Of a stretch of DNA of 64,000 nt, positions 2,115-58,314 are shown piece after piece. The translations under genes were made by a program, and so were the position numbers. The number at the start of each line of letters is the position of its first letter. The stretch's first letter is position 1. The stretch is from positions 1,262 through 65,261 of the forward strand of contig CAZDPK010000003.1 in assembly GCA_964507335.1 (NCBI GenBank), in the 5' to 3' direction. This DNA is from an uncultured Anaerolineaceae bacterium. Lineage in GTDB: Bacteria > Chloroflexota > Anaerolineae > Anaerolineales > Anaerolineaceae. A model generated the notes under the pieces. That model saw only the letters and a program-made list of their open reading frames with translations, ran no database searches and had not been told where the DNA came from.

Positions 2115-2599
2115 TTCTAGCCCTTTCTGTGCTAAGTGATTTTTTGTGGATGAAGGGTACAACATCCAAGCCGCTCAATATTACCATAAATTGCAATTTG
2201 CAAGAGCGAATACAATAAACTGTCCAGACTCCTTTCCGAAATTAGAGTCTCTCCATATGAATCAATCTTGTAGGCGTCTTACGGTCAAATCAGTGCTCGG
2301 CTAGGATGCCGTCATGATCACCGGCTGCTTCGTCCAGGAGATCTTTGCGTTCATTCGATTAAGATCCTTCGCTTTGATCATGATGATATAAGATCCACTC
2401 CCTTCAATTGCCTTCTTTCAATGCGCTGGAGGAAGGTGGTTTGTTTGTTCTTTCAAGTCAAAAGCCAACGCGCCACTGCTGTTCCCGAAGGTCTCCTGAC
2501 TGAACGTAAACGGTTACATCATGCGGTTTTTCTCACCGCTGATGGGCTCCATCAGGTATACTTAACTTGTTAACCATTAACCTAATTTTGAGGAGAGGT

Positions 2600-4255
2600 A
2601 TGACAGACCTAACACAATTTGATCAATGGCAGGAGAAATGCTACGATCCCGCCGTCAAGCGTTTCCCAGAACGAAAAGAGCAGTTCAAAACTTCATCCAA
2701 TATCCCTGTTCCAGCGGTTGTCCCACCTGAGAAAATTAACCCGGAGCAATTCGAAGAACTCGGTCTTCCCGGCATGTACCCTTACACTCGCGGTGTTCAA
2801 CCGACCATGTACCGCGGACGTCTGTGGACCATGCGCCAATATGCTGGTTTCTCCAGCGCGGAAGAATCGAACAAACGCTACCGATTCCTGCTTGAGCAGG
2901 GACAAACAGGTTTGAGCGTCGCTTTCGATCTGCCGACTCAGATCGGCTATGATGCGGACGACCCGATTGCGCTGGGTGAAGTGGGTAAGGTGGGTGTCTC
3001 TATTTCCTCAATTGAGGACATGGAAACCCTCTTCAACCTGATCCCACTTGACAAGGTCTCTACAAGCATGACCATTAATGCGCCAGCTGCTGTACTGCTG
3101 GCAATGTATATTGCTGTAGCGAAAAAACAAGGTGTTTCAGCAGCAGCGCTACGCGGTACGATCCAGAACGACATCCTGAAAGAGTATATTGCTCGCGGGA
3201 CGTATATCTTCCCCCCTAAACCCAGCATGCGCCTCATTACGGATATCTTCCAATATTGCAGACAGGAAGTACCCAACTGGAACACGATCAGTATCTCTGG
3301 ATATCACATCCGCGAAGCCGGCTCAACGGCTGTGCAGGAAGTTGCGTTTACCCTGGCAAACGCCATTGCCTACATCGATGCAGCCATCAAGGCGGGCATG
3401 GATGTGGACGAATTTGCCGACCAACTGTCTTTCTTCTTTAATGCCCACAACAACTTCCTGGAAGAGGTTGCCAAATTTAGAGCAGCTCGTCGGCTCTATG
3501 CCAAAATCATGCGAGAACGTTTTGGTGCCAGGAAAAACAAATCGGAACTTCTGCGTTTCCACACCCAAACGGCGGGATCAACATTGACTGCACAGCAACC
3601 TGAAAACAACGTCGTCAGAGTGACTCTGCAAGCCCTGGCAGCTGTTTTGGGGGGAACCCAATCGCTGCATACCAACAGCATGGACGAAGCACTGTGGTTA
3701 CCAACGGAAAAATCGGTGCAGGTAGCGCTGCGTACTCAGCAAATAATTGGATATGAATCCGGTGTTGCTGATTCCGTTGATCCTTTGGCTGGTTCTTATC
3801 TGGTGGAATACCTGACCGATGAGATAGAGAATCAAGCCATTGAATACATTGAGAAAATCGATGCGTTCGGTGGGGCACTGGCAGCCATTGAAAATGGCTT
3901 TATTCAAAACGAAATCCAGGAAGCCGCCTACCAGGCGCAGCGCAACCTGGAAAGCCTGGAGGATATCGTGGTTGGTGTCAACAAATTCCAGGTTAAAGAA
4001 GAAATATCGCTGGAATCACTGAGAATTGATCCCAAGATCGAACAGGACCAGCGCGAACGTCTGGCTGCACTGCGTGCTTCCCGCGATCCACAGATGGTTA
4101 ATGCTTTGTTGGACAAACTTGAGCGAACCGCCAACAGCGATGCCAATCTGATGCCGGTGATTATTGAATGTGTGGAAAACAAACTCACTTTGGGTGAGAT
4201 CTGCAATCGTTTGAGAAAAGTTTGGGGTGAATACGTTGCCCCCAATTTTCTCTAA
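2600..4255 (+). CDS. Methylmalonyl-CoA mutase family, catalytic (substrate-binding TIM barrel) subunit; no B12-binding domain
   Basis: [62 protein letters not shown] is the MCM alpha signature. The length stops before the Rossmann-like cobalamin domain. RBS aggagagg precedes the ATG at 2600. Confidence 0.9.
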
Positions 4256-4275
4256 GAAACATCAATAGGAGAGAG

Positions 4276-4683
4276 ATGGCAAAAATTACCAAAGTGAACC
4301 ATGTGGCGATCGTTGTAAAAGATATCGAGGAATCGCTAAAGTTTTGGGAAGAAAGCCTGGGTCTGACCCTCGACCACATTGAAGTAGTTCCTTCCCAGAA
4401 TTCCCGGGTCGCTTTCATCCCCGTTGGTGAAAGCGAGGTCGAGCTGGTGCAGCCCACCAGCGCAGAGACCGGTCTGGCTGCCTACTTGGAAAAAAGGGGC
4501 GAGGGTATGCATCACCTCTGCATGGAAGTGGATGATATTGACGCGAAGTTGGCAGAACTCAAAGAAAAAGGCGTACGCCTGATCAATGAGACCCCCGAAG
4601 TTTTGCCTGGTCGTAAGATGGCATTTATCCATCCTAAAGCCGGAAATGGTGTGTTGATCGAACTTTACCAACTGACTGACTAA
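4276..4683 (+). CDS. mce: Methylmalonyl-CoA epimerase (VOC/glyoxalase fold)
   Basis: 135 aa with VNHVAIVVKDIEESLKFW...GMHHLCMEVDDID...FIHPKAGNGVLIELYQ, directly downstream of the mutase. Confidence 0.85.
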   Translation: MAKITKVNHVAIVVKDIEESLKFWEESLGLTLDHIEVVPSQNSRVAFIPVGESEVELVQPTSAETGLAAYLEKRGEGMHHLCMEVDDIDAKLAELKEKGVRLINETPEVLPGRKMAFIHPKAGNGVLIELYQLTD

Positions 4684-4709
4684 GCTCACCAAGCCACAAG
4701 GAGGCAAAA

Positions 4710-6050
4710 ATGATCATTAGGAACGGAAACATTGTCACATGGAGTGAACCTAACCAGATCTTGGAGGGGCAAGAAATTCTGGTCCAGGGTGGAATCATAA
4801 AGTCGATTGAGCCAGAAGGTCAGTTGACAGCAAAGTATCCAGAGGAAGAGGTATTGGATGCGCATGGTCAGTTGATCATGCCCGGTAATATCTGTGCACA
4901 TACTCACTTTTATGGCGCTTTTTCGCGCGGAATGGCAATTCCTGGTGAGCCGGCGATCAATTTCCAGCAAATCCTCGAAAAATTGTGGTGGAAATTGGAC
5001 AAAGCATTGGATGAAGAGGGCACCCGCTATTCTGCTTTGACACTGCTGATTGACGCCATCAAATACGGCACTACCACCGTCATAGACCACCATGCTTCGC
5101 CAAACTTCATCGATGGCTCGCTGGACATCGTTTACGATGCAGTCAAACAAACAGGATTGCGCTCTGCCTTATGTTATGAAGTAACTGACCGAGATGGCGA
5201 AGAACGTGCTTTAGCTGGTATCAGGGAAAACAGCCGCTTCATCAGCCGCGTCCAGGCAGGGGAGATCGACCCGATGGTTAAAGCTCATTTTGGCTTACAT
5301 GCCAGTCTGACTGTTTCTGATGAGACCCTTGATAAATGTATCGAAGAAAACGACAACCGGGTTGGTTTTCACGTACACGCTGCCGAAGGGATTGTTGACC
5401 AGGAGGATTCGCTGGCAAAATATGGCAAGCGGGTTGTGGAACGTTTCTCGGACAAGAAGATTCTAAGTGACCGCAGTATTTTGGCACACGGAATTCACCT
5501 CTCGGACAACGAAATAAAGCTCCTCGCAAAAAGCCAAAGCTGGCTGACACACCAACCGCGTTCCAATATGAACAATGCGGTCGGCGTTGCAGCCGTAGAA
5601 AAACTGCTGGAGAGCGGCGTGAATTTGTGTTTGGGTAACGATGGCTTTTCAAATGCCATGTGGCAGGAGTGGTTCTTCACTTATCTGCTGCAAAAAGACC
5701 ATAAGGGCGACCCGAGAGCGATGAACGGCTATGATGTCATCAAAATCGCAGTTAACAATAATTCAAGACTTGCTACCCAAATCTGGGGAGGTCTGCGCGT
5801 AGGTGTAATTGAACCGGGAGCAGTGGCTGATATTATTTTCGTTGATTATCACCCAATCACACCCATGACCAGTGGCAATTTGCCCTGGCATATCCTGTTT
5901 GGCTTTCGGGATGGCATGGTCACGATGACCATGGCAAACGGTAAGGTTTTGATGAAAGACCGCAAGCTCCAGTTCCTGGATGAGGCGGAAATTGCTGCAA
6001 AATCACGCGAAGTTGCTGCCCAGACCTGGGCACGCGTCGCACAATTGTAA
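4710..6050 (+). CDS. ssnA: SsnA-like amidohydrolase (chlorohydrolase/deaminase superfamily)
   Basis: Metal motif HTHFYGAFSRG, plus KLWWKLDKALDEE, VIDHHASP, HVHAAE, HQPRSNMNN and GNDG. As I remember them, these match the SsnA family (TIGR03314-like). The YgfM/XdhD-like context downstream supports the call. Confidence 0.7.
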   Translation: MIIRNGNIVTWSEPNQILEGQEILVQGGIIKSIEPEGQLTAKYPEEEVLDAHGQLIMPGNICAHTHFYGAFSRGMAIPGEPAINFQQILEKLWWKLDKALDEEGTRYSALTLLIDAIKYGTTTVIDHHASPNFIDGSLDIVYDAVKQTGLRSALCYEVTDRDGEERALAGIRENSRFISRVQAGEIDPMVKAHFGLHASLTVSDETLDKCIEENDNRVGFHVHAAEGIVDQEDSLAKYGKRVVERFSDKKILSDRSILAHGIHLSDNEIKLLAKSQSWLTHQPRSNMNNAVGVAAVEKLLESGVNLCLGNDGFSNAMWQEWFFTYLLQKDHKGDPRAMNGYDVIKIAVNNNSRLATQIWGGLRVGVIEPGAVADIIFVDYHPITPMTSGNLPWHILFGFRDGMVTMTMANGKVLMKDRKLQFLDEAEIAAKSREVAAQTWARVAQL

Positions 6051-6060
6051 TGGAGAAAAG

Positions 6061-6720
6061 ATGAAATACACAATTGGAATTATTGGTGGAACGGGTAAAG
6101 AAGGTAGTGGACTGGCTTATCGCTGGGCGTTGGCTGGTCATAAGGTGATCATCGGATCGCGCCAGGAAGAAAAAGCTCTGGCTGCTGTTGATTCTCTGCT
6201 CGAAAAGATTGGTGATCAGGAAGTTGATCTTTCCGGTATGTCGAATGCTGAGGCTGTAAAAGGGTGTGAAATTGCCGTTTTAACCGTCCCATTTGCGGTC
6301 CATGCTTCCACCCTTGAAGGATTGAAGGAAGAATTGCAGGGAAAACTGATGATCGATGTTTGCGTTCCCCTTGTACCTCCAAAAGTCAGCAAGGTGCAGA
6401 TGCCCCCGGAAGGCAGCGCTGCATTGCAAGCCAAAGCGATCCTGGGACCCGATGTGCAGGTTGTGGATGCTTTCCAAACAATTGCTTTTGAACACCTTTT
6501 ATCAAATGAAGAGATTGAATGTGACGTTTTGGTAGCTGGTGGAAACAAGGAAGCCCGCGAAATCGTGATTAGTTTGGCGGAAGATATTGGTTTGAAAGCT
6601 TGGGATGCCGGTGTAATTGAGAACACAGTTGTGGTCGAAGGAATGACATCGATTTTGATTGGTCTCAATATGAAATACAAAGTTCCTTCCTCAGGGATTC
6701 GCATAACTGGTATCGAATGA
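6061..6720 (+). CDS. npdG: NADPH-dependent F420 reductase (F420H2:NADP+ oxidoreductase, NpdG family)
   Basis: MKYTIGIIGGTGKEGSGLAYRWALAGHKVIIGSRQEEKA is the NpdG N-terminus, and the length is about 220 aa. Start taken at ATG 6061. The stop overlaps the cofE start (ATGA). Confidence 0.85.
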   Translation: MKYTIGIIGGTGKEGSGLAYRWALAGHKVIIGSRQEEKALAAVDSLLEKIGDQEVDLSGMSNAEAVKGCEIAVLTVPFAVHASTLEGLKEELQGKLMIDVCVPLVPPKVSKVQMPPEGSAALQAKAILGPDVQVVDAFQTIAFEHLLSNEEIECDVLVAGGNKEAREIVISLAEDIGLKAWDAGVIENTVVVEGMTSILIGLNMKYKVPSSGIRITGIE

Positions 6721-7496
6721 GCCAACCCAAACGACTCACACTCAGTGCAGTTGCTGGAATTCCACTCATCCATGAAGGTGACGATCTGGCAGAGATCATT
6801 TTTCAAGCGGCAATGGACTGTGACCTGACCTTTGAGGACGATGATGTATTGGTATTGGCGCAAAAAATAGTCTCTAAGGCGGAAGGTCGTCTGGTCAACC
6901 TGAGCAGTGTCACTCCTTCAGTTGAAGCAGTGGAATTGTCGACCTTTTTGGATAAACGACCTGAACTGGTGGAGTTGATTCTCAGGGAAAGTTCAGAGGT
7001 CCTTCGCACCCGGCCTGGCACAATCATCGTTCAACACAAAGCTGGCTTTGTGTGCGCAAATGCCGGCATCGATCATTCCAATGTCAAGGGACCTTGGGGT
7101 GAGGAAAACGATTGGGTATTGCTTTTGCCAGAGGATTCGGATCAATCTGCTGGGCGTATTCGAAAGCAGCTTGAAGAAAAAACAGGTAAACGGCTTGCGG
7201 TTCTAATTATTGATTCTCACGGGCGAGCCTGGCGAAATGGGGTTGTGGGTACAGCTATCGGTTTATCGGGGATGCCAGGCTTGGTGGACATGCGCGGAAC
7301 GGAAGATATGAACGGCTACAAGATGCGGGTGACGACAATTGCAGCAGCCGACGAGCTCGGTGCCGCAGCCTCCTTGCTAATGGGGCAGACCAGTGAAGGA
7401 ACGCCAGTGGTGCATGCGCGGGGTTTCCCGTATCCACTGCGTGAAGGTTGTGTGGCTGAATTGATCCGCGACAAGGAAAAAGACTTGTTCAGATGA
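6717..7496 (+). CDS. cofE: Coenzyme F420-0:L-glutamate ligase, single-domain (archaeal-type CofE, no nitroreductase-like C-domain)
   Basis: LAQKIVSKAEGRLV, ANAGIDHSNV and IIDSHGRAWRNGVVGTAIG. The protein is only 259 aa. Confidence 0.9.
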   Translation: MSQPKRLTLSAVAGIPLIHEGDDLAEIIFQAAMDCDLTFEDDDVLVLAQKIVSKAEGRLVNLSSVTPSVEAVELSTFLDKRPELVELILRESSEVLRTRPGTIIVQHKAGFVCANAGIDHSNVKGPWGEENDWVLLLPEDSDQSAGRIRKQLEEKTGKRLAVLIIDSHGRAWRNGVVGTAIGLSGMPGLVDMRGTEDMNGYKMRVTTIAAADELGAAASLLMGQTSEGTPVVHARGFPYPLREGCVAELIRDKEKDLFR

Positions 7497-8467
7497 GCGA
7501 ATTCACTTTTCCTCAATTTTCTACACTCAAAGTAGCTGTGCTGGCAGGAGGTGTTGGTGGGGCGAAACTGGTGCTTGGTCTGGACCGTGTGCTTTCCCCT
7601 GGAAGCCTGAGTGCCATTGTCAATACAGGAGACGATTTCACCCATTTTGGTCTGAAAATATGCCCGGATATTGATTCCGTCTGCTACTCACTGGCTGGCT
7701 TGGCGAACAAAAGCTACGGTTGGGGACTGGAAGGGGAAACCTGGAATGTTGCTGATGCGCTGGAAACCCTGGGGGCACCAACCTGGTTTCAACTGGGCGA
7801 TCGTGACCTGGCTACCCATCTCGAGCGCACACGCCAGTTAGGGCAGGGTAAAAAGCTTAACCAGATTGTGGCTGAATTTTGCGCAAACTGGGGTATTTTA
7901 AGCCACATTCTTCCTATGAGCGATGATGATGCACCGACCCTGATCGAGACCAAATCGGGAGCGATCTTACCTTTCCAGGATTATCTGGTCAAGGAGAAGG
8001 CACAGCCTGAAGTCAACCGAATCCTTCTGCATGGTGGGCTTGAGCCAACACTTCTGCCAGAGGCCCTGTTATCCATCAAGGAGGCAGACCTGGTTGTGAT
8101 AGCGCCATCTAATCCATGGGTAAGTATTGATCCAATTTTGGGATTGAGCGGTGTAAGAGAGGCATTGGAAACTAAGTATGTTGTGGCTGTGTCTCCAATA
8201 ATCCAGGGCAAAGCTATCAAGGGTCCGGCAGCGAAGATGTTTAACGAACTGGGCATCCAACCCTCCAGCCTGGCTGTTTTGAAACACTACTCGGATTTGC
8301 TTGATCTGTTTGTTTATGATGCCAGCGAAAAGCCAATTTCTTCAGCCGACATTCCAGAAGGTATAGAGACTATTCAACTTCAAACTATTATGTCCGATGA
8401 AGCAGATAAGGTTCAACTTGCCAGAGGCATCCTCGAGCATTTTACTGCCATGTATGGAGCCAGATGA
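7493..8467 (+). CDS. cofD: 2-phospho-L-lactate (or EPPG) transferase CofD/FbiA
   Basis: KVAVLAGGVGGAKLVLGL...VNTGDDF...APSNPWVSIDPIL. ATGA overlaps on both sides. Confidence 0.9.
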   Translation: MSEFTFPQFSTLKVAVLAGGVGGAKLVLGLDRVLSPGSLSAIVNTGDDFTHFGLKICPDIDSVCYSLAGLANKSYGWGLEGETWNVADALETLGAPTWFQLGDRDLATHLERTRQLGQGKKLNQIVAEFCANWGILSHILPMSDDDAPTLIETKSGAILPFQDYLVKEKAQPEVNRILLHGGLEPTLLPEALLSIKEADLVVIAPSNPWVSIDPILGLSGVREALETKYVVAVSPIIQGKAIKGPAAKMFNELGIQPSSLAVLKHYSDLLDLFVYDASEKPISSADIPEGIETIQLQTIMSDEADKVQLARGILEHFTAMYGAR

Positions 8468-9087
8468 CCTCGTGGGCAGTGCTTCCCGTTAAACCGCTGA
8501 GCAAGGGGAAGTCACGTTTGCATGGCTGCTTGAATGCTGAAGAAGTTTACTCGCTCAATCGCTGCTTTTTTGAAGAAACCTATCAGAAACTTAATGGCAG
8601 CAATGAAATAGACCGAATTCTGGTCGTGAGTCAGGATGAGGACGTGTTGAAATTTACGCGCCGTTTGGGCGGGGTAGCTTTGAAAGAAAACAAGCAAAGC
8701 AGCCTCAATGAAGCAGTGTCGCAAGCGCTCGCCTTTATTTTGGAAAACGACCCCGGCATGGTATTAATTGTGCCTGCCGATTTGCCTTGGATGACCGTAG
8801 AGGACCTGTCCGGGTTAATGAAGCTGCGCCAGAAAAAAGAATTTATGGTCATTGTTCCCGATCAAGATCAGCGGGGAACAAATGCGATCCTCCTCAGTCA
8901 GCCAGGCTTGCTCACTCCAAAATTTGGACGACAATCTTTTCAAAAACATGCCCAACAAGCAGCCAATCGATCCGTACAATTGGTCGTTTGGTTAAACAAA
9001 AACATCCAAAGGGACCTAGATACCCCTCAGGATTTGATATTCTATAATAAAATCAAGTTCAATCCAATCCATATATTTTCTGAGTAG
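8464..9087 (+). CDS. cofC: Guanylyltransferase CofC/FbiD of F420 biosynthesis
   Basis: WAVLPVKPLSKGKSRL...VSQDEDV...IVPADLPW...DQDQRGTNAIL, about 207 aa, MobA-like fold. Confidence 0.85.
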   Translation: MTSWAVLPVKPLSKGKSRLHGCLNAEEVYSLNRCFFEETYQKLNGSNEIDRILVVSQDEDVLKFTRRLGGVALKENKQSSLNEAVSQALAFILENDPGMVLIVPADLPWMTVEDLSGLMKLRQKKEFMVIVPDQDQRGTNAILLSQPGLLTPKFGRQSFQKHAQQAANRSVQLVVWLNKNIQRDLDTPQDLIFYNKIKFNPIHIFSE

Positions 9088-9102
9088 AAAGGACTTCTCA
9101 CT

Positions 9103-10104
9103 ATGTTCGAAAAAGTTGCTCTATACCTCCAGGACTCCCACGATTTACGCGATGGTCTTGAAATTGTGAAATACGCTGAAGAAAAAGGCTTCGATTCTGT
9201 TTGGCAGGCTGAAAGCCGGCTTGTCCGCGATGCAATCGTGCCGATGGCAGCTTATGCTGCAGTAACCGAAAAAATCAAGGTCGGTTCAGCGGTTATCAAT
9301 AACTGGACCCGTAATATTGGTCTGTTAGCTTCAACCTTCCTGACCATGGACGATCTTGCACCAAACCGGATTATTTGTGGCATCGGTGCCTGGTGGGATC
9401 CGTTGGCAAAAAATGTGGGCATTAACCGCACCAAACCATTGAAAGCGATGGAAGAAACTATTACCATCTTACGCAGGCTTCTGAATATGGAGAATGTTAC
9501 TTTCGAAGGTGAATTTGTCCAAGTTCACGGTATTGAACTGGACGTTGTTCACGGTCGTCGTGAACCCCGTAATGTTCCCATCTATATTGGCGCAACCGGC
9601 GGCAAGATGATTGAAATGACAGGGCGAATCGCCGATGGTATCGTCATGAACTATTGTGTGCCGGTGGAATACAACGACTATGCTCTGGAACAGCTTGACA
9701 AAGGCTTGAAACAAGCCGGGCGCAAAATGGAAGAATTTGACCGTCCGCAATTGGTGGTCTGCTCTGTGGACGAAGACCATGACAAGGCGATTGACACGAC
9801 CCGGGAATTGCTCACTCAATACCTGGCACAGCAACCTCACATCGCCCAGGCTTCTGGCGTTTCCATGGATATCGTTGAAAGTATCCAGGCGATTTTAGGC
9901 TGGCCAGCCACTCATGAGCAGATTCAGGCTGCCAAACATTTGGTTCCCGACGATTTGATCCACCGTATCACTGCCAGCGGCACGCCGGCTGAAGCCCGCG
10001 CTAAAGTGCAGGAATACATTGACCACGGTTGTACCTGTCCGATTCTGTATGGAGTCGGCGGAAATACCAAGCTTCTGATCGATACATTTGCTAAAGAGAG
10101 TTAA
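9103..10104 (+). CDS. LLM-class (luciferase-like, Mer-like) F420-dependent oxidoreductase
   Basis: 333 aa with [18 protein letters not shown]...[23 protein letters not shown]...[19 protein letters not shown]. Typical LLM/Mer family layout, adjacent to the cof genes. Confidence 0.8.
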
Positions 10105-10568
10105 TGGAAAAATTGCCTGGTAGCAAAGGCTGCTATGTTTGCGGGAGAGAAAACCCGATCTCCTTGAAACTGGAGTTTTTCGTGAATGAAAACGGAGATG
10201 TTATCTCTGAATTCAGTTTTGCTGAAAACTATGCCGGCTTTCCGGGGATGGTCCATGGCGGCAACATTGTGGCAGTTCTTGACGAAACAGCAGGCAGAGC
10301 GCTTACCACCGACGACCCGAATATTTTTATGGTCACAAGCGAATTGAAAGTAAAGTACATCAAACCTGTGCCGACCGACACTCCCCTGGTTGTGATTGGA
10401 AAGTTAGTGAAAAAACGCGGAAGATTGGCGGTCGGACACAGTGAAATACAGACGAAAGATGGTGTTGTTCTGGCAACCTGCGAAGCATTTTTTGTAGAGG
10501 TTACCGAAGAATTAACCCAAGGAGGAGACCTGGAAGAATCCGGGTGGAAGGTGTATCCAGATGACTGA
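10104..10568 (+). CDS. PaaI/4HBT-type hotdog-fold thioesterase with an N-terminal CxxC knuckle
   Basis: CYVCGRENPISLKL...GMVHGGNIVAVLDETAGRA. Its start shares one nucleotide with the upstream stop (TAATG). Confidence 0.8.
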   Translation: MEKLPGSKGCYVCGRENPISLKLEFFVNENGDVISEFSFAENYAGFPGMVHGGNIVAVLDETAGRALTTDDPNIFMVTSELKVKYIKPVPTDTPLVVIGKLVKKRGRLAVGHSEIQTKDGVVLATCEAFFVEVTEELTQGGDLEESGWKVYPDD

Positions 10569-11337
10569 AAAAACAATGCAATACATTCGACCTGTTTCCC
10601 TGGAGGAAGCATTGCTCTTGAAACAAGAATATGGCGACAGGGCAAAATTTCTGCTTGGAGGCGATTTCCGACCCAGGTTGGAGGATAACCTGGAGTTATT
10701 GATCGACCTGCAAGATGCCGGGCTGGACGGGATTGAATGGAACGAAAACGGGATGCAAATTGGTGGGCTGGCTACGCTGAAATCTTTGGAGGAAAACCTT
10801 GAACTACTTGATTTCAGTGAAGCCCTCAGCAATGAGTATGGATTGAATGTACGCAATACCCTCAGCCTTAGCAACTTTTTGGCTCAAACAAACGGGCGTT
10901 CTCCAGTTTTATGTTGTTTGCTCGCGCTCAATGCCAAAGTTGTTTTGCTAAAGAGGGCAGAGGAAATTTTCCTGGCAACGTTTTTACAAGAAAAAATCCA
11001 GGATGATCACGTGATTGAAATTCGAATTCCCAATCCGACTAACCTTGCCTTTGAAAGCGTAGGCAGAAGCCCTAAAGATCTACCGATTGTGTGTGTTGCT
11101 GCAGCAAAATCAGCGGACGGAGCGATCCACGTTGCTGTTGGAGGCAGCGTCGAAGTAAAACCCGGATTCATAATGCAAAACTATGACGATGATGGGTTGA
11201 CTGAGGTCAAAGCTGTTTTAGCAGACGCAGAAGATGAATGGGCTAGTGCAGAGTACCGGCAGGAGGTGGGGGCAGTGCTGCTTTCAAGAACCTTGCAAAA
11301 ACTGCACCTTCAGACAGGATGCCAGGAGGCGAAATGA
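10561..11337 (+). CDS. YgfM-like / CoxM-like flavoprotein subunit of a molybdenum hydroxylase; FAD motifs are degenerate
   Basis: 258 aa with overall CoxM/XdhB architecture (YIRPVSLEEALLL..., C-terminal SAEYRQEVGAVLLSRTL). However, GGDF replaces AGGTDL and LSLSNF replaces GT(I/V)GGN. Confidence 0.7.
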   Translation: MTEKTMQYIRPVSLEEALLLKQEYGDRAKFLLGGDFRPRLEDNLELLIDLQDAGLDGIEWNENGMQIGGLATLKSLEENLELLDFSEALSNEYGLNVRNTLSLSNFLAQTNGRSPVLCCLLALNAKVVLLKRAEEIFLATFLQEKIQDDHVIEIRIPNPTNLAFESVGRSPKDLPIVCVAAAKSADGAIHVAVGGSVEVKPGFIMQNYDDDGLTEVKAVLADAEDEWASAEYRQEVGAVLLSRTLQKLHLQTGCQEAK

Positions 11338-14246
11338 ACTTAACCCTTTTCATTAATCAAAAGGAATACCAAGTTGATATCAGACCAGACGAGAAGCTGC
11401 TCGGTGTTCTGCGCCAGCTTGGCTTCCTGGGCGCAAAATCAGGCGGATGCGTAAAAGGCGAGTGCGGCGCTTGTACGGTTCTAATGGATGGTAATCCAAT
11501 CAACAGCTGCATGTTTTTAGCCGTTCAAGCCCAAGGGCATAAAATCGAAACCATTGAATGCGCTGGTCAGCATCCTCAGCAGGGTTGGAAGAAGACCGAC
11601 GGATATTCCATCCTGCAGCAGGCATTTATCGAAAGTGGTTCGGTACAGTGCGGTTACTGTACGCCAGCGATGATCCTTTCTGCCAAAGCCTTGCTGGATA
11701 AGAATCCTGACCCAACTGAAGCCGAGGTTCGTGATGCCTTATCTGGTGTGCTATGCCGATGTACTGCTTACGTGAAACCGGTTCAGGCTGTTTTAGCTGC
11801 GGCTGAAAGAATCCGTTCACTTGCGAGTTTTGATAGTGTCTCAACTGACATTTCAGCTTACGAACCCGAAATTTTCACACTGGATCAGCGTGAAGGTACT
11901 GTTACGATTGGCAAGTCGGAAATTAAAGTCGACGCTGCCAAATTGGTCCAGGGAAAACCAGCCTTCACTGCCGATTGGCAGCTACCTGACATGTTGTATG
12001 CCAAAGTTTTGGCTTCACCCTATGCCCACGCACGTATTAAAAGCATCGACGCCAGCCAGGCAAGAGCTCTGGAAGGCGTGGCAGCGGTGTTAACCTGGGA
12101 AGACCTTCCACGAGTGGTTCACTCTACGGCTGGTCAGTCAGACCCCATTCCAGGCCCGCTGGATATGTTCTCATTGGATAACAAAGTCCGTTTTGTTGGC
12201 GATCGTGTGGCTATGGTGGCTGCGGAAACCCTGGAGATCGCTGAAAAAGCGCTCAGTCTGATCAAGGTCGATTACGAAGAACTGCCTCCCATTATCGACG
12301 TACGTGAGGCGATGAAACCAGGATCGCCGGTGATTCACGATGAAATTGAATATGTCAATTTTGCTGATTCAGACCCAACCATAAACCTGGCAGCCAAGAT
12401 CCGCATTGATATCAACAATGTTGATAAAGGATTTGCCGAAGCTGATCGGATTTTTGAAGAAGAATACTGGGTTCCCAAAGTTCAGCAAGCCCACATCGAA
12501 CCCCATGTAACCCTGACCTGGTGGGATGAGGACGACCGTCTGGTGGTTCGCACCAGCACTCAGGTGCCCTTCCATGTGCGCCGCATGATCGCGCCGGTGA
12601 TTGGCTTGCCAGTCAAACGCATACGGGTGATCAAACCACGTATTGGTGGTGGTTTTGGCAACAAACAGGAAGTCCTGGTCGAGGACGTAGCCGCCCATCT
12701 GACGATTGCGACTGGAAGACCGGTGCTCTACGAGATGACACGTGAAGAAGAATTTATTGCCTCCCGTTCCAGGCACCCAATGCACATTCGCATGAAGACG
12801 GGTGTGAAAAACGACGGCACCATGACAGCTAATGAAATGTATGCCCTTTCTGATACGGGCGCTTATGGCTGCCACGCTCTTACAGTGACCGGCAATACTG
12901 GTCAAAAATCTATGGGTCTGTACGTGGGTGACGGTGAGTATCGCCAGAAACCAAATATCCGTTTTTACGCAGACATCGTCTACACCAACACACCTCCTTC
13001 TGGTGCCTACCGGGGTTATGGTGTGCCGCAAGGTTATTGGCCTCTTGATCGTCATCTTGAGACAATAGCAAGGGAACTTGGACTGGACCCAATTGAGTTT
13101 CGCCTAAAAAATGCCTTAAGACCAGGTGAGTTCCAACCGTTCAGTACCGCTTGGAATGAAGGGCGCGAACCTGTACCCGAAATCGTGACTACGGTTGGGT
13201 TGGAAGAATGCGTCCGACAGGGTAAGGCTGCCATAGGTTGGGACGAAAAGTTCAAAAACGAAGCCTGGCATTTGGTTGCAGGTAAACCGCACTTGCGTCG
13301 TGGCATTGGTGTCGCGACGGTTATGCAAGGTACGGCAATCCCATACCTGGATATGGGTGGTGCACACATCAAGATCAACGATGACGGCAGCTTCAATTTG
13401 ATGGTTGGCGCTACCGACCTTGGCACAGGCAGTGATACAGCCTTAGCACAAATTGCTGCAGAAGTGTTGGGCGTCAAGGTTGACGATATGATCGTTACCT
13501 CCTCTGACACAGACACAACGCCATTTGATGTCGGTGCTTATGCTTCGTCCACAACATACATCTCTGGAACTGCAGTCATGCGAGCAGCAGAAAAAGTTGC
13601 TGAGCAGGTGAAAGACCGGGCAGCTATCATTTTTGCTGACCGTGGATACGAATATGCCTCTCAAGACATCATCTTGCGCGATAACCATGCCCTTGCACCC
13701 AACGGAGAGCGTGTCAGCATGGCAGAAATCGCCTTGGATTCACTGCATTGGCGTAAGCAGGAGCAGATCATGGCGAGTGCTTCTTACGTTTCCCCAAATT
13801 CCCCACCTCCTTTTGCAGCACAGTTTGCAACAGTTTTGGTCGACATTGAAACAGGACAAGTTACGGTCGAGGATTTGATAATGGCGGTCGATTCCGGTGT
13901 GATCATCAACCCGATTTCGGCTTCCGGGCAGATTGAAGGCGGTATTGCCCAGGCGTTAGGTTATGGCGTATGCGAAGAGATGGTCTATGATGCCGACGGT
14001 CAGCCTCGGGAAAAAGACCTGGTTGATTATCACATTTTCAGAGCCGATGAAATGCCAAAAATCCGCTCACTTTTTGTACAAACCTACGAAGAGACCGGTC
14101 CTTTCGGTGCTAAAGCTGTGGCTGAGATTCCGCTTGATGGAGCTGCTCCGGCAATTGGTAATGCCGTGGTGGATGCCTGTGGGGCGAGCATTTTGGACAA
14201 TCCTGTTACCCCTGAAAAGATTTGGCGAGCCTTAAATAAGAAATGA
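11334..14246 (+). CDS. xdhD: XdhD-like molybdenum hydroxylase: N-terminal [2Fe-2S] module fused to the molybdopterin-binding subunit
   Basis: GGCVKGECGACTVLMDG, QCGYCTPAMI and LCRCTAY are the two 2Fe-2S clusters. These are followed by the a/b-hammerhead and Moco domains (IGGGFGNKQE, GAYRGYGVPQG, FGAKAVAEIP). About 970 aa. ATGA overlap with the upstream gene. Confidence 0.85.
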   Translation: MNLTLFINQKEYQVDIRPDEKLLGVLRQLGFLGAKSGGCVKGECGACTVLMDGNPINSCMFLAVQAQGHKIETIECAGQHPQQGWKKTDGYSILQQAFIESGSVQCGYCTPAMILSAKALLDKNPDPTEAEVRDALSGVLCRCTAYVKPVQAVLAAAERIRSLASFDSVSTDISAYEPEIFTLDQREGTVTIGKSEIKVDAAKLVQGKPAFTADWQLPDMLYAKVLASPYAHARIKSIDASQARALEGVAAVLTWEDLPRVVHSTAGQSDPIPGPLDMFSLDNKVRFVGDRVAMVAAETLEIAEKALSLIKVDYEELPPIIDVREAMKPGSPVIHDEIEYVNFADSDPTINLAAKIRIDINNVDKGFAEADRIFEEEYWVPKVQQAHIEPHVTLTWWDEDDRLVVRTSTQVPFHVRRMIAPVIGLPVKRIRVIKPRIGGGFGNKQEVLVEDVAAHLTIATGRPVLYEMTREEEFIASRSRHPMHIRMKTGVKNDGTMTANEMYALSDTGAYGCHALTVTGNTGQKSMGLYVGDGEYRQKPNIRFYADIVYTNTPPSGAYRGYGVPQGYWPLDRHLETIARELGLDPIEFRLKNALRPGEFQPFSTAWNEGREPVPEIVTTVGLEECVRQGKAAIGWDEKFKNEAWHLVAGKPHLRRGIGVATVMQGTAIPYLDMGGAHIKINDDGSFNLMVGATDLGTGSDTALAQIAAEVLGVKVDDMIVTSSDTDTTPFDVGAYASSTTYISGTAVMRAAEKVAEQVKDRAAIIFADRGYEYASQDIILRDNHALAPNGERVSMAEIALDSLHWRKQEQIMASASYVSPNSPPPFAAQFATVLVDIETGQVTVEDLIMAVDSGVIINPISASGQIEGGIAQALGYGVCEEMVYDADGQPREKDLVDYHIFRADEMPKIRSLFVQTYEETGPFGAKAVAEIPLDGAAPAIGNAVVDACGASILDNPVTPEKIWRALNKK

Positions 14247-14253
14247 GCTGTTA

Positions 14254-15627
14254 ATGGAAAAAGGAATATATCAGAAGAAATCGTCCGATCGAATTTACGT
14301 AACAGGTCACATCAACCCTGATACTGACTCCATTGCATCAGCGATTGGTTACGCCTGGCTGCTTAATGAACGAGATGGGGAACCGACAGTGGCAAGTCGG
14401 GCTGGTGCGATAAACATGCAAACTCTGTTCGTGCTAAAGACTCTCGCGATCGAACCGCCTGTGCTCCTTACCGATGCCAGCCCTCGCTTTGATTCGGTTA
14501 TGCGGCGGTTGGATGTGGTTTCGCCAGAAAAATCACTTAATGAGGCCTGGACAATCCTCTCAAGAACCGGTGGCATTGCGCCGGTCGTAAACGACGATGG
14601 CACACCTTATGGCATGGTCACTGGCAGCAGCATGTTCGATTTCTTACGAAAAATTATTGGACCGCATCCCAAATTTCGAGATATGACCATCTCAGAGATG
14701 CTGGATATCCAGTGCCGGGAAGCTGCCACGCGCAATATTCCGAAATTCCAACCCCAGACCCGAATCAAAGATGTTATAAACCGTCTGCTTCGGCAGGAGT
14801 TCAACGAGTACTGGGTAGTGGATGAAAACAATCGTTATTTGGGCATAACCCGTCAGCGCGACATCGTCAACCCCCCACGAATCAAGGTAATTTTGGTCGA
14901 TCATAACGAACCTCAGCAATCGATTGCCTCTTTGGAAGAGAGCGAATTGCTTGAAATCCTTGATCATCATCGGCTCGGTAACCAATCTACGCACAATCCA
15001 ATTAAATTTACGGTAGATATTGTTGGCAGCACCTCAACCCTGGTATCTGAACAGATTTCTGAAGCTGGTTTGAGCGCGCCGCCAAATGTCGCCGGATTAT
15101 TGCTGGCAGGCTTGCTTTCCGATACGCTTATCCTGTCCTCACCGACAACTACTGCACGAGACAAGGCCATTGCCAACGTACTTGCTCGCTGGGCGTTTGT
15201 TCCTGGTTCGCCTCTGGAAAACGAAAACATCCAGAGCTGGGGTGAAAGCATCATCCATGCTGGCGCTGGATTGTTAACGCAGGAGCCGGATGTGATCGTC
15301 AGGACGGATATGAAGGTCTACGAAAACGGCGGATTTAAGTTTGCAGTCGCCCAGGTTGAAACTACCGATTTGTACCAGATTGGTGAATATGTTGATCCAT
15401 TAAGGAAGGCGTTGGTCGGTCTGAATAAGGAACAAGGGCTCGATTTTGCCGGTCTGATGGTAACTGATGTGGTTGAGGGTTCCAGTCGGTTGGTTTTTGT
15501 GGATGCCCCACCGGCTTTGGACGAATTACCTTACGAACCCCTGCCCGATGGAACGGTTTTAGCGGATGGCGTTGTTTCTCGCAAGAAGCAGTTGTTGCCG
15601 ATCATTTTATCTTTACTTGAGGTGTAA
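14254..15627 (+). CDS. CBS-domain-containing family II (DHH/DHHA2) inorganic pyrophosphatase
   Basis: YVTGHINPDTDSIASAIGYAWL, a CBS pair inserted at about aa 70-200, then ILVDHNE, ILDHHRLG and a DHHA2-like C-terminus. Confidence 0.8.
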   Translation: MEKGIYQKKSSDRIYVTGHINPDTDSIASAIGYAWLLNERDGEPTVASRAGAINMQTLFVLKTLAIEPPVLLTDASPRFDSVMRRLDVVSPEKSLNEAWTILSRTGGIAPVVNDDGTPYGMVTGSSMFDFLRKIIGPHPKFRDMTISEMLDIQCREAATRNIPKFQPQTRIKDVINRLLRQEFNEYWVVDENNRYLGITRQRDIVNPPRIKVILVDHNEPQQSIASLEESELLEILDHHRLGNQSTHNPIKFTVDIVGSTSTLVSEQISEAGLSAPPNVAGLLLAGLLSDTLILSSPTTTARDKAIANVLARWAFVPGSPLENENIQSWGESIIHAGAGLLTQEPDVIVRTDMKVYENGGFKFAVAQVETTDLYQIGEYVDPLRKALVGLNKEQGLDFAGLMVTDVVEGSSRLVFVDAPPALDELPYEPLPDGTVLADGVVSRKKQLLPIILSLLEV

Positions 15628-16394
15628 TGAAGGAACTATACGAAAAATTGTACGAAGCAACCAAGTCAGGACAACCAGTATGTCTGTGTATAGTAATTGA
15701 AACCAAGGGTGCCGTTCCGCGGCATGCAGGCAGCAAGATGCTGGTCTATCCGAATGGGCTGACATTTGGCTCAGTTGGTGGTGGGCAAGTTGAGAATGAG
15801 ACTGTGGAAGCTGCTTTTCGAGCCTTGAAAACGGGCCAACCGGAGATTGTTCGTTACACGCTTGACCCGAAACAACAAAATGCAGTCGGAGTATGCGGCG
15901 GTGATGTGACGGTGTATGTAGAACCTCAGTCTGTCCGCCCGATTTTGTTGATCCTGGGTGCGGGTCATGTTGGACGTTCGATGGCGAAATTTGCCCAGCT
16001 GCTTGATTTCAGGGTGATTGTATCTGATGACCGGGCTGATCTTTGCACCAGTGAACAGATCCCTGGCGATGTCGAGTTTCTGCCAATCCCGATGCAAGAA
16101 ATTCCAGCCTATGTTGACATCAATGAGCAGGTCTACATCGTGGGTGTCACCCGCGGTAGCGACGTAGATATTATAGGTTTGCCAGCAATTCTGCAGCACA
16201 CACCGGCATACATCGGGCTGATTGGCTCGTTGAAGCGTTGGGGTACCACCAAAAAAGCCCTACTTGAGCAAGGTATCGCCAGGGAAAAAATCGAACTGAT
16301 CAAATCACCAATTGGAATTGACATCGAAGCCGAAACACCGGATGAGATTGCTATCAGCATTTTGGCTGAGGTTATCCAGGCCCGGAATAGTTAA
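15627..16394 (+). CDS. xdhC: XdhC/CoxI-family molybdenum-hydroxylase maturation factor
   Basis: XdhC_CoxI N-domain (CLCIVIETKGAVPRHAGSKMLV...GSVGGGQVE) followed by a Rossmann part (LILGAGHVGRSMAKFA). Confidence 0.85.
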   Translation: MKELYEKLYEATKSGQPVCLCIVIETKGAVPRHAGSKMLVYPNGLTFGSVGGGQVENETVEAAFRALKTGQPEIVRYTLDPKQQNAVGVCGGDVTVYVEPQSVRPILLILGAGHVGRSMAKFAQLLDFRVIVSDDRADLCTSEQIPGDVEFLPIPMQEIPAYVDINEQVYIVGVTRGSDVDIIGLPAILQHTPAYIGLIGSLKRWGTTKKALLEQGIAREKIELIKSPIGIDIEAETPDEIAISILAEVIQARNS

Positions 16395-16414
16395 TTTACC
16401 TCCAGGAGGCACCT

Positions 16415-17827
16415 ATGTGGAAGAACTATCACATGCCAGAATCGGTTGAGCAGGTGATTGACCTGTTGAGCCGGGCAGGCAGCCAGACAAAGATCATCGC
16501 AGGAGGAACCGACCTGATGATCGAAATTCGGGATGGCAAATGGCCGGGCTTGGAGGATGTTATCGACATTACCAGAGTTCGTGGTCTTGACAGCATCTAC
16601 CAGGATGAAGAGGGTTTGGTACATATCCAGGCCAATGTGACTCATAATGATGTTCTCAAGTCAGATTTGATTCGTGAAACAGGGTCGCCTCTTTACCAGG
16701 CTTGTTACCGGGTTTCATCACCGCAATTGCGCAATCGCGCAACTGTGGTTGGTAACCTGGTGACCGCTTCTCCAGCCAATGACACAATTACCCCCTTGAT
16801 GGCAATGGATGCCAGCCTCGTGTTGGTCTCTGGCAGAGGAGAGAGACATGTACGATTGAACGAGTTTTACCTTGGTTTGCGAAAAAGTGTGAAACAACCT
16901 GATGAACTGGTTAGCGAGATTATCTTTCAACCGTTGGAAGCCACTCAAAAAGGCAGCTTCATCAAACAAGCACTGAGGAAAACCCAGGCAATTGCTACCT
17001 TGAATTGCTGCGTGCTGCTTGACATCCATGATGGCTTGATTGTGAATGCCGCTGTAACGATGGGTTCTGTGGCACCGACTGTCATCCATTCGATTGCAGC
17101 TGAAGAGTTCCTACATGGCAAAAGTTTGAGTGCAGAGACAGCCAGAAGAGCTTCTGAATTAGCAGCTCTCGATACAAGGACAATCAGCGATCTGCGAGGT
17201 GGTGCCGATTATCGCAAGTACATGATGCAGGTGATCGTTGAAGATGCCCTAAAGGAACTGATTGATAATCGACAGGATCTAAAAGTTCCTGAAAATCCTG
17301 TCACCTTGAGCCAGGGGGCAGGCTGGCAAGCCGTTCCAGATGGAACATGGGACCAGGAGCATATCTCGACTACCATCAATGGACAACCCATGCAATTTGG
17401 GGGAGAAATTAAGGGTACCCTTCTAAATTTCGTTCGGGAGCGTGTAGGTTATAGTGGACCAAAGCCTGGTTGTGAGGAAGGCGAGTGTGGAGCCTGCACA
17501 ATGTACCTGGATGGCAAGGCTGTGGTCAGCTGCCTGGTGCCTGCTCCGAGAGCGCATATGGCGACTATCACAACCGTTGAGGGTCTGGCAGATGAAGGTC
17601 AACTTCACCCGGTTCAACAACAGTTTATCAAGCATGGTGCGGTGCAATGCGGCTACTGTACCCCTGGTTTTGTGATGGCAGCTGCAAAATTAATGGAAGA
17701 AAAACCTCATCCAACGGAAGAAGAAATCAAGGATGGGATCTCAGGCAACTTGTGTCGGTGTACTGGCTATTACAAAATTATTCAAGCAATCGAAGCAGCT
17801 TGCCAGGATGACGGAGGTGCGCAATGA
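16415..17827 (+). CDS. Molybdenum hydroxylase electron-transfer subunit: FAD-binding (CoxM-like) domain fused N-terminal to a [2Fe-2S] (CoxS-like) domain
   Basis: Canonical IIAGGTDLM and RNRATVVGNL FAD motifs. C-terminal part has GCEEGECGACTMYLDG, QCGYCTPGFV and LCRCTGY. Confidence 0.88.
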   Translation: MWKNYHMPESVEQVIDLLSRAGSQTKIIAGGTDLMIEIRDGKWPGLEDVIDITRVRGLDSIYQDEEGLVHIQANVTHNDVLKSDLIRETGSPLYQACYRVSSPQLRNRATVVGNLVTASPANDTITPLMAMDASLVLVSGRGERHVRLNEFYLGLRKSVKQPDELVSEIIFQPLEATQKGSFIKQALRKTQAIATLNCCVLLDIHDGLIVNAAVTMGSVAPTVIHSIAAEEFLHGKSLSAETARRASELAALDTRTISDLRGGADYRKYMMQVIVEDALKELIDNRQDLKVPENPVTLSQGAGWQAVPDGTWDQEHISTTINGQPMQFGGEIKGTLLNFVRERVGYSGPKPGCEEGECGACTMYLDGKAVVSCLVPAPRAHMATITTVEGLADEGQLHPVQQQFIKHGAVQCGYCTPGFVMAAAKLMEEKPHPTEEEIKDGISGNLCRCTGYYKIIQAIEAACQDDGGAQ

Positions 17828-20665: not shown

Positions 20666-20835
20666 GTAGGTCAACCTGATCTTTTCACTCAGAATGAGCT
20701 TAAGAATTTTCTTGAATTGGTTGCTTTGATTCTTCGTGATGCAAGCTCAGGATGACAGATCGAAAAACACTGTACCACCGAAGGTAGGTACGCAAATTGC
20801 ACGCTAAAGTATAATAGAACCAACTTGGAAAACTA

Positions 20836-20975: not shown

Positions 20976-20989
20976 TTTGAGGAGCACTT

Positions 20990-32518: not shown

Positions 32519-32522
32519 TGAG

Positions 32523-58246: not shown

Positions 58247-58314
58247 AAGTGCACCTCCACACAAGAATTGCTGAATTATAATATTATCATTCCAAATGCT
58301 AACGAGGAGATAAG

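Follow-up and report, generated by a model that had tools for sequence, protein, structure and literature searches.

A 64-kb stretch of DNA from an uncultured Anaerolineaceae bacterium (contig CAZDPK010000003.1 of assembly GCA_964507335.1; hereafter the window) carries on its plus strand a gene cluster in which homologs of the Escherichia coli genes ssnA, ygfM and xdhD surround genes for the deazaflavin cofactor F420, among them a luciferase-like (LLM) oxidoreductase that is a candidate F420H2-dependent oxopurine reductase. The nearest public relatives of the window's proteins, at identities of up to 93–96%, come from Anaerolineaceae metagenome-assembled genomes (MAGs). All genes from approximately 2567 to 20665 lie on the plus strand with a consecutive spacing of −8 to +26 nt, and those at about 4710–20665, with gaps and overlaps of −8 to +20 nt, form one translationally coupled operon. 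An earlier note on this DNA had correctly called the ssnA-, ygfM- and xdhD-like open reading frames (ORFs) on this strand; it left out a hot-dog-fold gene and the entire set at 14254–20665, which comprises a diphosphatase, XdhC, a second molybdenum enzyme and MocA.

Gene content of the operon

The first gene (4710–6050) encodes a 446-residue amidohydrolase of the SsnA family. Its scores exceed the cut-offs of both curated models (NF005540, 532.5 bits against 444; TIGR03314, 501.5 against 455.5), which bears out the family assignment made in the earlier note, and its full-length identity to E. coli SsnA is 37%. Hydrolytic opening of the ring of reduced 2,8-dioxopurine is an activity established only for the E. 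coli member of this family (PMC12507026); by analogy, the same reaction is predicted for the window protein.

Ten nucleotides past the ssnA stop codon, npdG/fno (6061–6720) starts with an ATG at 6061, served by the ribosome-binding site GGAGA. Its product, an NADPH:F420 oxidoreductase (Pfam F420_oxidored; TIGR01915, 202.6 bits against 149.8), is predicted to regenerate F420H2. Three genes for completing the cofactor follow, each overlapping its predecessor by 4 nt: cofE (6717–7496; F420-0:L-glutamate ligase; TIGR01916, 258.2 against 180.65), cofD (7493–8467; 2-phospho-L-lactate transferase; TIGR01819, 296.9 against 257.45) and cofC (8464–9087; guanylyltransferase of F420 biosynthesis; TIGR03552, 141.6 against 105). 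Fno, CofE, CofD and CofC thus each exceed their curated equivalog cut-off, and with the LLM gene, also recovered by the family scans, they fill the interval between ssnA and the ygfM-like gene as the earlier note had described.

The LLM gene (9103–10104) encodes a Mer-like protein with a Pfam Bac_luciferase domain (PF00296, 214 bits). All of its top NCBIfam matches are F420-dependent families (Mer, F420_NP1902A, F420_Rv3093c and others), none of which reaches its cut-off; the Mer models TIGR03555 and NF002619 score 172.2 against 348.7 and 183.1 against 276, respectively. The nearest solved structures are Mer (E = 5.5e-39), FGD (1e-13) and Adf (5e-12), whereas FMN-dependent LLMs reach only about 1e-6 (SsuD, 3e-06). 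Judged by these comparisons, the protein is closer to the F420-dependent than to the FMN-dependent members of the luciferase-like family. It belongs to a separate clade, which counts 284 representatives at E<=1e-30, and an exhaustive search of cluster representatives places its nearest full-length relatives at 41–48% identity. The closest characterized relative, aligned over about 300 residues, is Mer, the F420-dependent 5,10-methylene-tetrahydromethanopterin reductase (PDB 8QQ8, 1Z69, 1EZW, 1F07), a TIM-barrel F420H2-dependent hydride transferase whose substrate is a fused N-heterocycle. The window protein differs from Mer in falling below the Mer cut-offs and in its bacterial, purine-catabolic context, as opposed to methanogenic C1 metabolism.

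A gene for a hot-dog-fold (4HBT/PaaI-like) protein (10104–10568; Pfam 4HBT, 49.9 bits; TIGR00369, 36.6 bits, exactly at the cut-off) overlaps both the LLM gene and the ygfM-like gene (10561–11337). The 258-residue YgfM-like small subunit has FAD_binding_5 as its only Pfam domain (49.5 bits) and aligns along its whole length with E. coli YgfM at 29% identity; its best NCBIfam match is TIGR03312, at 72.2 bits far below the cut-off of 241.5. Its gene lies immediately upstream of, and overlaps by 4 nt, the gene for a 970-residue XdhD-like fusion protein (11334–14246; the longest ORF begins at 11319), a layout identical to that of E. coli ygfM.

The Pfam order of the fusion protein, Fer2, Fer2_2, Ald_Xan_dh_C, MoCoBD_1 and MoCoBD_2, is the architecture of E. 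coli XdhD (EcXdhD), in which two [2Fe-2S] cluster motifs precede the molybdenum cofactor (Moco) domains. An exact match to it is lacking in public assemblies; its best relatives, from Anaerolineaceae MAGs, are 93% identical. Identity to EcXdhD is 37% over the full length and to E. coli XdhA 34%, with bit scores of 591 and 441. EcXdhD used as a query returns 551 bits to 11334–14246 and 221 bits to the second Moco enzyme at 17824–20067. The XdhD-like protein and EcXdhD are reciprocal best matches, and the same is true of the two YgfM proteins. The XdhD model TIGR03313 scores 675.1 bits against a cut-off of 1101.9, and the XdhA model NF043082 scores 690.1 against 780. Family membership as the earlier note had it therefore fails at the curated cut-offs for YgfM and XdhD, while homology, reciprocal best matches and architecture hold. 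Both proteins are best described, on sequence grounds, as divergent relatives and not as members by curated thresholds, with an architecture, an adjacency and an active-site marker that are XdhD-like. The broader proposal that the locus is homologous to the E. coli ssnA–ygfM–xdhD set stands, given these reciprocal matches, the fusion architecture and the SsnA models passed.

All eight Fe–S cysteines of the two [2Fe-2S] motifs are retained in the XdhD-like protein and are conserved in 41–42 of 42 Anaerolineales orthologs. The first 170 residues of EcXdhD (L001:26317–29187; L numbers are our locus identifiers) and of the Acidimicrobium ferrooxidans homolog (L092:13682–16615) contain no cysteine at all, and Pfam nonetheless detects Fer2_2 in both (the comparable region of the window is 11334–11850). 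The ‘Fe-S domain’ of these two proteins therefore cannot bind [2Fe-2S] clusters.

The solved structure nearest to the Moco part is the alpha subunit of 4-hydroxybenzoyl-CoA reductase (HcrABC; PDB 1RM6, E = 3.6e-108), a xanthine-oxidase-family enzyme that works reductively, removing a hydroxyl group as XdhD does, and the 4HBT-fold gene next door extends the likeness. A 4-hydroxybenzoyl-CoA-type function was considered and judged unlikely. The corresponding model TIGR03194 reaches 543 bits against 995, the neighboring SsnA and xanthine dehydrogenase (XDH) genes give a purine/amidohydrolase context and not a benzoyl-CoA one, and HcrABC has an FAD/[4Fe-4S] beta subunit where the window has an Fe-S–Moco fusion and a 258-residue subunit.

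The remainder of the operon appears to serve a second molybdenum hydroxylase and cofactor maturation. A CBS-domain DHH/DHHA2 protein (14254–15627; Pfam DHH, CBS and DHHA2) is probably a family II inorganic diphosphatase. It scores 320.6 bits with NF011443, just below the cut-off of 335, resembles a putative Mn-dependent inorganic diphosphatase, and may remove the pyrophosphate from the nucleotidyl transfers of MocA and CofC. The 255-residue XdhC-family Moco insertion chaperone (15627–16394; Pfam XdhC_CoxI and XdhC_C) is 32.5% identical over 243 residues to E. coli YqeB, whose N-terminal half it matches. The second hydroxylase consists of a fused FAD and two-[2Fe-2S] subunit (16415–17827; Pfam FAD_binding_5, 138 bits, CO_deh_flav_C and Fer2_2) and a Moco subunit (17824–20067) with pucD as its best NCBIfam match, at 512.8 bits against 783.65. 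A MocA-like molybdenum cofactor cytidylyltransferase (20042–20665), for which TIGR03310 is the best match and scores 140.9 bits against 186.45, completes the operon.

Several genes of the E. coli pathway are missing. With E. coli queries, tblastn (E<=1e-3) returned no match in the 64 kb to YgfK, YgfT, HyuA, YgeW, YgeX, YgeY, YqeA, YqeC, UacT or GuaD, and Pfam scans of window ORFs of >=150 residues revealed neither a GltD/dihydropyrimidine-dehydrogenase-type protein nor SelD. The earlier note's remark that nothing like YgfK is present thus holds for the whole window. Two superficially similar candidates were rejected: an M20 protein (25954–27123) considered as YgeY is a TIGR01891 amidohydrolase, and a PALP protein (34541–35626) considered as YgeX is threonine-synthase-like.

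Conservation of the cluster and its boundaries

When species-representative genomes were scanned with the LLM protein, 80 loci were obtained, all from Anaerolineales, and the window and E. coli proteins were mapped onto these. The counts for the upstream side come from the 57 loci in which over 5 kb precedes the LLM gene, those for the downstream side from the 53 in which over 9 kb follows it. Upstream, SsnA is encoded in 53/57 loci and NpdG and CofE in 54/57, and the exact order SsnA–NpdG–CofE–(CofD)–CofC–LLM is kept in 48. With SsnA and the exact gene order so widely retained, the arrangement is not due to chance. In two rearranged loci (L061 and L083), ssnA has been relocated directly upstream of the LLM gene.

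Downstream of the LLM gene, an XdhD-like protein is encoded in 36 of the 53 loci, the second Moco enzyme in 41 and both in 32; the second enzyme stands alone in 9, 17 clusters lack the YgfM-like/XdhD-like pair, and no molybdenum enzyme of any kind occurs within 10 kb in 8. SsnA, the F420 genes and the LLM gene thus constitute a constant core to which the hydroxylases are variable additions. The hot-dog gene is present in 20/53 loci, mostly together with the YgfM-like/XdhD-like pair, and the CBS-DHH gene lies inside the molybdenum-enzyme cluster in 30/53. Median identity across loci is 80% for LLM, 68% for the XdhD-like protein, 57% for SsnA and 34% for the YgfM-like protein, which makes LLM the most conserved and the YgfM-like subunit the fastest-evolving product of the cluster, with the floor of LLM identity being partly a selection effect, since loci were ranked by LLM similarity.

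Two side observations concern individual loci. In L083, an Anaerolineales MAG, a fusion of PreT (GltD-like) and PreA (dihydropyrimidine-dehydrogenase-like) at 5501–8104 lies directly upstream of ssnA (8108–9451; 558 bits against 444), and this pair sits between cofC and the LLM gene. In 13 Anaerolineales loci and in two other lineages, cofE and cofD are separated by a gene of the nitroreductase family whose product is similar to the dehydro-F420-0 reductase domain at the C terminus of FbiB (for example L043:7187–7972, L054:7690–8418, L061:5392–6177, L083:2944–3693, L085:7765–8373 and L091:7807–8406). It is absent from the window's subclade, where cofD begins at 7493 and cofE ends at 7496, and this absence may mean that the F420 tail is made from another precursor there or that the reductase gene lies at a different site.

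We inspected the genomic contexts of six LLM relatives at 41–48% identity. In Acidimicrobiia (Actinomycetota), including A. ferrooxidans, the LLM gene is followed, in this order, by genes for an amidohydrolase, a RidA/ABM protein, a YgfM-like subunit, an Fer2–Moco fusion 49% identical to the window's XdhD-like protein, an SsnA-like amidohydrolase (SsnA being its best-scoring family, below the cut-off), XdhC, the C-terminal half of YqeB (YqeB-C) and YqeC; no cof genes lie near this locus. In two further metagenomic lineages, LLM adjoins an SsnA-like amidohydrolase and a three-subunit XDH, and one of them adds a bona fide D-hydantoinase, a PALP enzyme and, at the edge of the locus, NpdG. Lineages L085 and L091 carry NpdG–CofE–nitroreductase–CofD–CofC–LLM, then a protein of about 820 residues and XdhC/YqeC-type genes. 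The ORF for this large protein, which has no Pfam domain at E<=0.01, begins at the LLM stop codon (L085:11043–13508; L091:11002–13458), with XdhC next to it in L091 and a YqeC–NTP_transferase fusion nearby in L085, and it may encode an unrecognized partner enzyme. One of the six relatives shows no association. Sister LLM clades also pair with chlorohydrolase/deaminase-like amidohydrolases other than SsnA and with 8-oxoguanine deaminase.

Linkage to cofC, cofD, cofE and fno, seen in 54/57 genomes as well as in L085 and L091, supports the predicted use of F420H2 by LLM. The linkage of LLM to amidohydrolases and molybdenum enzymes, an observation like the gene identities, the operon structure and the conserved gene order, does not come simply from an F420 biosynthesis operon, because no cof genes lie at the loci of the Acidimicrobiia and of the two XDH-bearing lineages. 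In five of the six contexts, the clade is tied to cyclic-amide hydrolases, xanthine-oxidase-family enzymes or F420 supply, and this is the strongest argument that LLM may reduce N-heterocycles in catabolism, as opposed to being a bystander in a cofactor operon.

The same data bear on the alternative of synteny without shared function, in which cofC, cofD, cofE, npdG and LLM would be an F420 biosynthesis locus together with a housekeeping Mer-like enzyme, for instance a C1 or pterin reductase, that merely neighbors purine genes. We retain within this alternative a role of LLM as a Mer-like methylene-folate reductase, for which no literature support was found. The far greater conservation of LLM than of SsnA or the molybdenum enzymes is what a housekeeping enzyme would lead one to expect, and so are the 17 loci that lack the XdhD-like pair, the eight that have no molybdenum enzyme nearby, and L085 and L091, which keep NpdG–CofE–CofD–CofC–LLM with no adjacent SsnA. 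Yet SsnA heads the block in 53/57 loci and stays beside LLM when the block is rearranged, LLM relatives adjoin amidohydrolases and XDH-family enzymes where cof genes are lacking, and Moco maturation genes of the XdhC or YqeC type closely follow LLM even in L085 and L091. We consider mere synteny quite improbable.

The wider sample also bears on the selenium-dependent molybdenum hydroxylase neighborhood, to which the earlier note assigned the E. coli locus and whose markers are yqeB (TIGR03309), yqeC (TIGR03172) and selD (Haft & Self 2008, PMC2276186). In the window, none of the three was found, and only the XdhC protein resembles a marker, namely the N-terminal half of YqeB. Among related Anaerolineales, at least 14 loci nevertheless encode YqeB-C and at least 5 encode YqeC, and Acidimicrobium has the two of them. 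In L023, L026, L029, L034, L036, L040–L042, L046, L049, L050, L052, L053 and L070, YqeB-C, in some loci with YqeC, follows the second Moco enzyme at about 14–20 kb into each locus. In the window (20665–20990) and the genomes closest to it, glmS or mrp comes next after the MocA gene; the selenium-maturation genes were therefore lost or moved in this subclade.

As regards the boundaries of the cluster, methylmalonyl-CoA mutase and epimerase genes (2567–4683, plus strand) lie directly upstream of ssnA. They were considered as part of the module and rejected, being upstream only in close relatives and absent in distant module-bearing genomes. No purine, xanthine, Moco or 8-oxoguanine riboswitch precedes the operon, either at the Rfam gathering threshold across the whole window or at E<=1 on 2100–4750; the Rfam scans gave two tRNAs and one chance sRNA match only. 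The tRNAs, tRNA-Asp(GTC) at 32522–32596 and tRNA-Arg(TCT) at 43006–43079, both on the minus strand, are the only Rfam/ARAGORN matches in the window. A promoter and terminator scan gave counts near chance expectation and does not define the operon ends. Elsewhere in the window, four ORFs have no Pfam match at E<=1e-5: 43543–45132 (minus strand, 529 residues), 45198–46169 (plus, 323), 48185–49459 (minus, 424; adjoining ftsZ at 46998–48167) and 57470–58264 (minus, 264).

Proposed pathway and its alternatives

In E. coli, XdhD–YgfM with NADH converts urate to 2,8-dioxopurine (‘yanthine’) on its own. YgfK, an NAD(P)H-dependent enzyme with FMN, FAD and Fe-S centers, then dearomatizes 2,8-dioxopurine, an activity seen only when coupled to SsnA, and YgfK and SsnA together yield ureidomethyl-hydantoin (PMC12507026; bioRxiv 10.1101/2025.04.24.650524; commentary in PMC12990295). 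UacX is the dearomatizing reductase in Clostridioides. In the SsnA similarity network of Li et al. (2025; PMC12507026), Chloroflexota lack both YgfK and UacX and have instead a PF00296 ‘putative F420-dependent’ enzyme. Since YgfK is a separate, subsequent enzyme and not the electron input of the hydroxylase, LLM is to be read as its non-homologous replacement, most likely a functional counterpart of YgfK and UacX that would act with F420H2 on 2,8-dioxopurine.

We therefore read the window, with a confidence only a little better than even, as the Anaerolineales version of the upper part of reductive anaerobic uric-acid/purine degradation, with LLM as the F420H2-dependent ring reductase. Substrate and cofactor assignments in the following scheme are predictions throughout. 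The FAD/[2Fe-2S] and Moco enzyme (16415–20067), matured by XdhC and MocA, would oxidize xanthine or hypoxanthine to urate. The XdhD-like fusion and its YgfM-like subunit (10561–14246) would then carry out the reductive dehydroxylation of urate to 2,8-dioxopurine, and the Mer-like LLM would transfer a hydride from F420H2 to this product, the dearomatizing step of YgfK and UacX. SsnA would hydrolyze the reduced ring and so pull the unfavorable reduction forward. NpdG/Fno would recharge F420 from NADPH, and CofC, CofD and CofE would build the cofactor from its deazaflavin head group FO. In this scheme F420 would carry the hydride for ring reduction and would not supply electrons to the molybdenum hydroxylase.

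Active-site residues of both molybdenum enzymes bear on these assignments. The second Moco subunit carries a Glu after the GGxFGxR/K motif (bovine E802-like), an Arg equivalent to R880 and the catalytic Glu; the position after GGxFGxR/K is Gln in the XdhD-like protein, EcXdhD and EcXdhA. It is plausible that this enzyme, with its canonical xanthine-dehydrogenase-type residues, makes the urate that the XdhD-like enzyme reduces. The XdhD-specific active-site loop with Glu606 in EcXdhD has been proposed to orient urate (Li et al., 2025; PMC12507026). The equivalent Glu is aligned in the window's XdhD-like protein and invariant in all 42 Anaerolineales orthologs, and the region is deleted in XdhA. 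At the position equivalent to bovine R880, however, the Gln of EcXdhD is replaced by Arg in the XdhD-like protein, and substrate orientation may therefore differ.

These residues lead to the question of the substrate. In an alternative that we regard as unlikely but worth keeping, identical chemistry (dehydroxylation by the molybdenum enzyme, ring reduction by F420H2 and ring opening by the amidohydrolase) would act on another N-heterocycle, such as 8-oxoguanine, 6,8-dioxopurine, or a pterin, pyridine or pyrimidine derivative. The Arg at the R880 equivalent speaks for it, as do an XdhD-like protein that falls below the TIGR03313 cut-off and scores equally with the XdhA model, the absence of the lower urate pathway, the pairing of sister LLM clades with non-SsnA amidohydrolases and 8-oxoguanine deaminase, and the pterin substrate of Mer. 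Set against these are the passage of SsnA above its equivalog cut-off, the conservation of the E606-equivalent Glu and its loop, and the canonical XDH in the same operon, which would supply urate.

Several results weigh against the urate pathway with an F420H2-dependent ring reductase. No FO synthase (CofG/CofH or FbiC) was detected in the window by Pfam scans of ORFs of >=150 residues, where the sole radical-SAM ORF is RlmN-like. The genes of the lower urate pathway (HyuA, YgeW/UacY, YgeY, YgeX and YqeA) are absent from the window and from the 20-kb loci of nearly all relatives. The YgfM-like and XdhD-like proteins miss the TIGR03312 and TIGR03313 cut-offs, and the R880-equivalent residue departs from that of EcXdhD. 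Eight of 53 loci have no molybdenum enzyme within 10 kb, and LLM is so much more conserved than its supposed partners that it could have a housekeeping role instead. Finally, the PreT–PreA fusion beside ssnA and LLM in L083 indicates that a canonical-type reductase can coexist with LLM.

The earlier note had gone further in one respect, proposing an F420-coupled member of this hydroxylase family. On that reading the XdhD-like molybdenum enzyme, which belongs to the xanthine-oxidase family, would receive its electrons from F420H2 by way of the YgfM-like subunit. We searched the YgfM-like proteins for two FAD-contact motifs, GG-T/S-x-L and [AS]T[ILV][GA]G. In the window protein the first reads LGGDF, and the second, RN-x-[AS]T[ILV][GA]G in its extended form, reads RNTLSLSNF, where E. 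coli YgfM has STIGGE. The second motif is degenerate in about 18 of 47 YgfM-like orthologs and intact in more distant Anaerolineales, E. coli and Acidimicrobium. With its second FAD motif lost and its rapid evolution, the YgfM-like subunit of this subclade may no longer be an ordinary NADH:FAD module; the F420 genes lie directly upstream, and the physiological donor of clostridial XdhAC is not established (bioRxiv 10.1101/2025.04.24.650524).

Other considerations make this coupling very doubtful. F420 is an obligate two-electron hydride carrier and could supply [2Fe-2S] clusters, which take up single electrons, only through a flavin-containing mediator. No candidate for such a mediator, and no F420-binding protein besides those named above, came out of the Pfam and NCBIfam scans of the cluster, so nothing points to F420 for the XdhD-like enzyme. 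Moreover, E. coli XdhD–YgfM runs on NADH, the XdhD-like pair is dispensable in the cluster whereas LLM and SsnA are not, the more distant YgfM-like orthologs keep normal FAD motifs, and LLM already accounts for the F420 genes. The claim of an F420-coupled hydroxylase is accordingly not upheld. The note's underlying idea that F420 takes the place of YgfK as redox partner survives in part: F420 is very probably a redox cofactor of the pathway, but most likely not the partner of the molybdenum hydroxylase. Possible donors for the XdhD-like Mo center are NAD(P)H via a modified flavin site, or ferredoxin. An extended form of the F420-coupled proposal, in which both reductive steps would be fed by F420, the YgfM-like subunit would bind a deazaflavin or dock to Fno or LLM, and FO would perhaps come from methanogen partners, would give the first F420-linked xanthine-oxidase member, set in a self-contained cassette of cofactor and clients, and seems to us a distant prospect.

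Returning to the urate pathway with LLM as its ring reductase, comparison with characterized systems defines how far the window departs from them. The E. coli ygfK–ssnA–ygfM–xdhD locus (Li et al., 2025; Liu et al., 2025) shares SsnA, an overlapping pair of YgfM-type subunit and Fer2–Moco fusion, the E606-equivalent Glu, and a nearby MocA and XdhC/YqeB-type maturation gene. Unlike E. coli, the window has no YgfK and instead places an F420-type LLM, Fno and CofC/CofD/CofE between ssnA and the ygfM-like gene; its XdhD-like protein has eight Fe–S cysteines and Arg instead of Gln at the R880 equivalent, its YgfM-like subunit has a degenerate second FAD motif, and HyuA, YgeW, YgeX, YgeY, YqeA, YqeB-C, YqeC and the transporters are absent. 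Clostridioides difficile and Clostridium sporogenes (UacX or YgfK with XdhAC, a ferredoxin or unknown donor, selenium-dependent) follow the same pathway logic with an exchangeable reductase module. Their reductase, however, is a PydA/DHOD-type FMN enzyme and not an LLM, their XdhAC has no YgfM subunit, and they have the selenium markers selD, yqeB and yqeC, of which the window has none.

The window is an instance of the Chloroflexota variant predicted by Li et al. (2025), having SsnA, neither YgfK nor UacX, and a luciferase-family enzyme predicted to reduce 2,8-dioxopurine with F420. The concept is thus already in print as a bioinformatic prediction, and the window adds a variant to a known pathway and does not represent a new type of system, which weakens the novelty that the earlier note had claimed; we found no experimental test of the prediction in the literature. 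That publication gives the variant one sentence and a colored network, and does not describe the CofC/CofD/CofE–Fno genes, the fixed gene order, the variable XdhD/YgfM pair, the second XDH or the Acidimicrobiia clade. A 2021 review of F420 lists no purine or xanthine role.

A possible task for F420 in anaerobic Chloroflexota

What is added here to the published prediction is the anatomy of the operon, the recognition in about 50 species of a fixed cassette that joins cofactor synthesis, recharging and client enzyme to SsnA, the absence of the hydroxylase pair from some of the clusters, the pattern of Fe–S and FAD motifs, and the extension to Acidimicrobiia including a cultured organism. Because the operon packs a client enzyme together with cofactor tail biosynthesis and recharging, it is also an attractive portable cassette for testing and engineering.

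If the proposed reading is correct, purine catabolism would gain in LLM its first F420-dependent enzyme, and anaerobic uricolysis, after YgfK and UacX, a third, non-homologous solution to its thermodynamically difficult dearomatization. To our knowledge, the role of F420 in anaerobic Chloroflexota is essentially unknown; the pathway outlined here would give the cofactor a concrete physiological job in these organisms.

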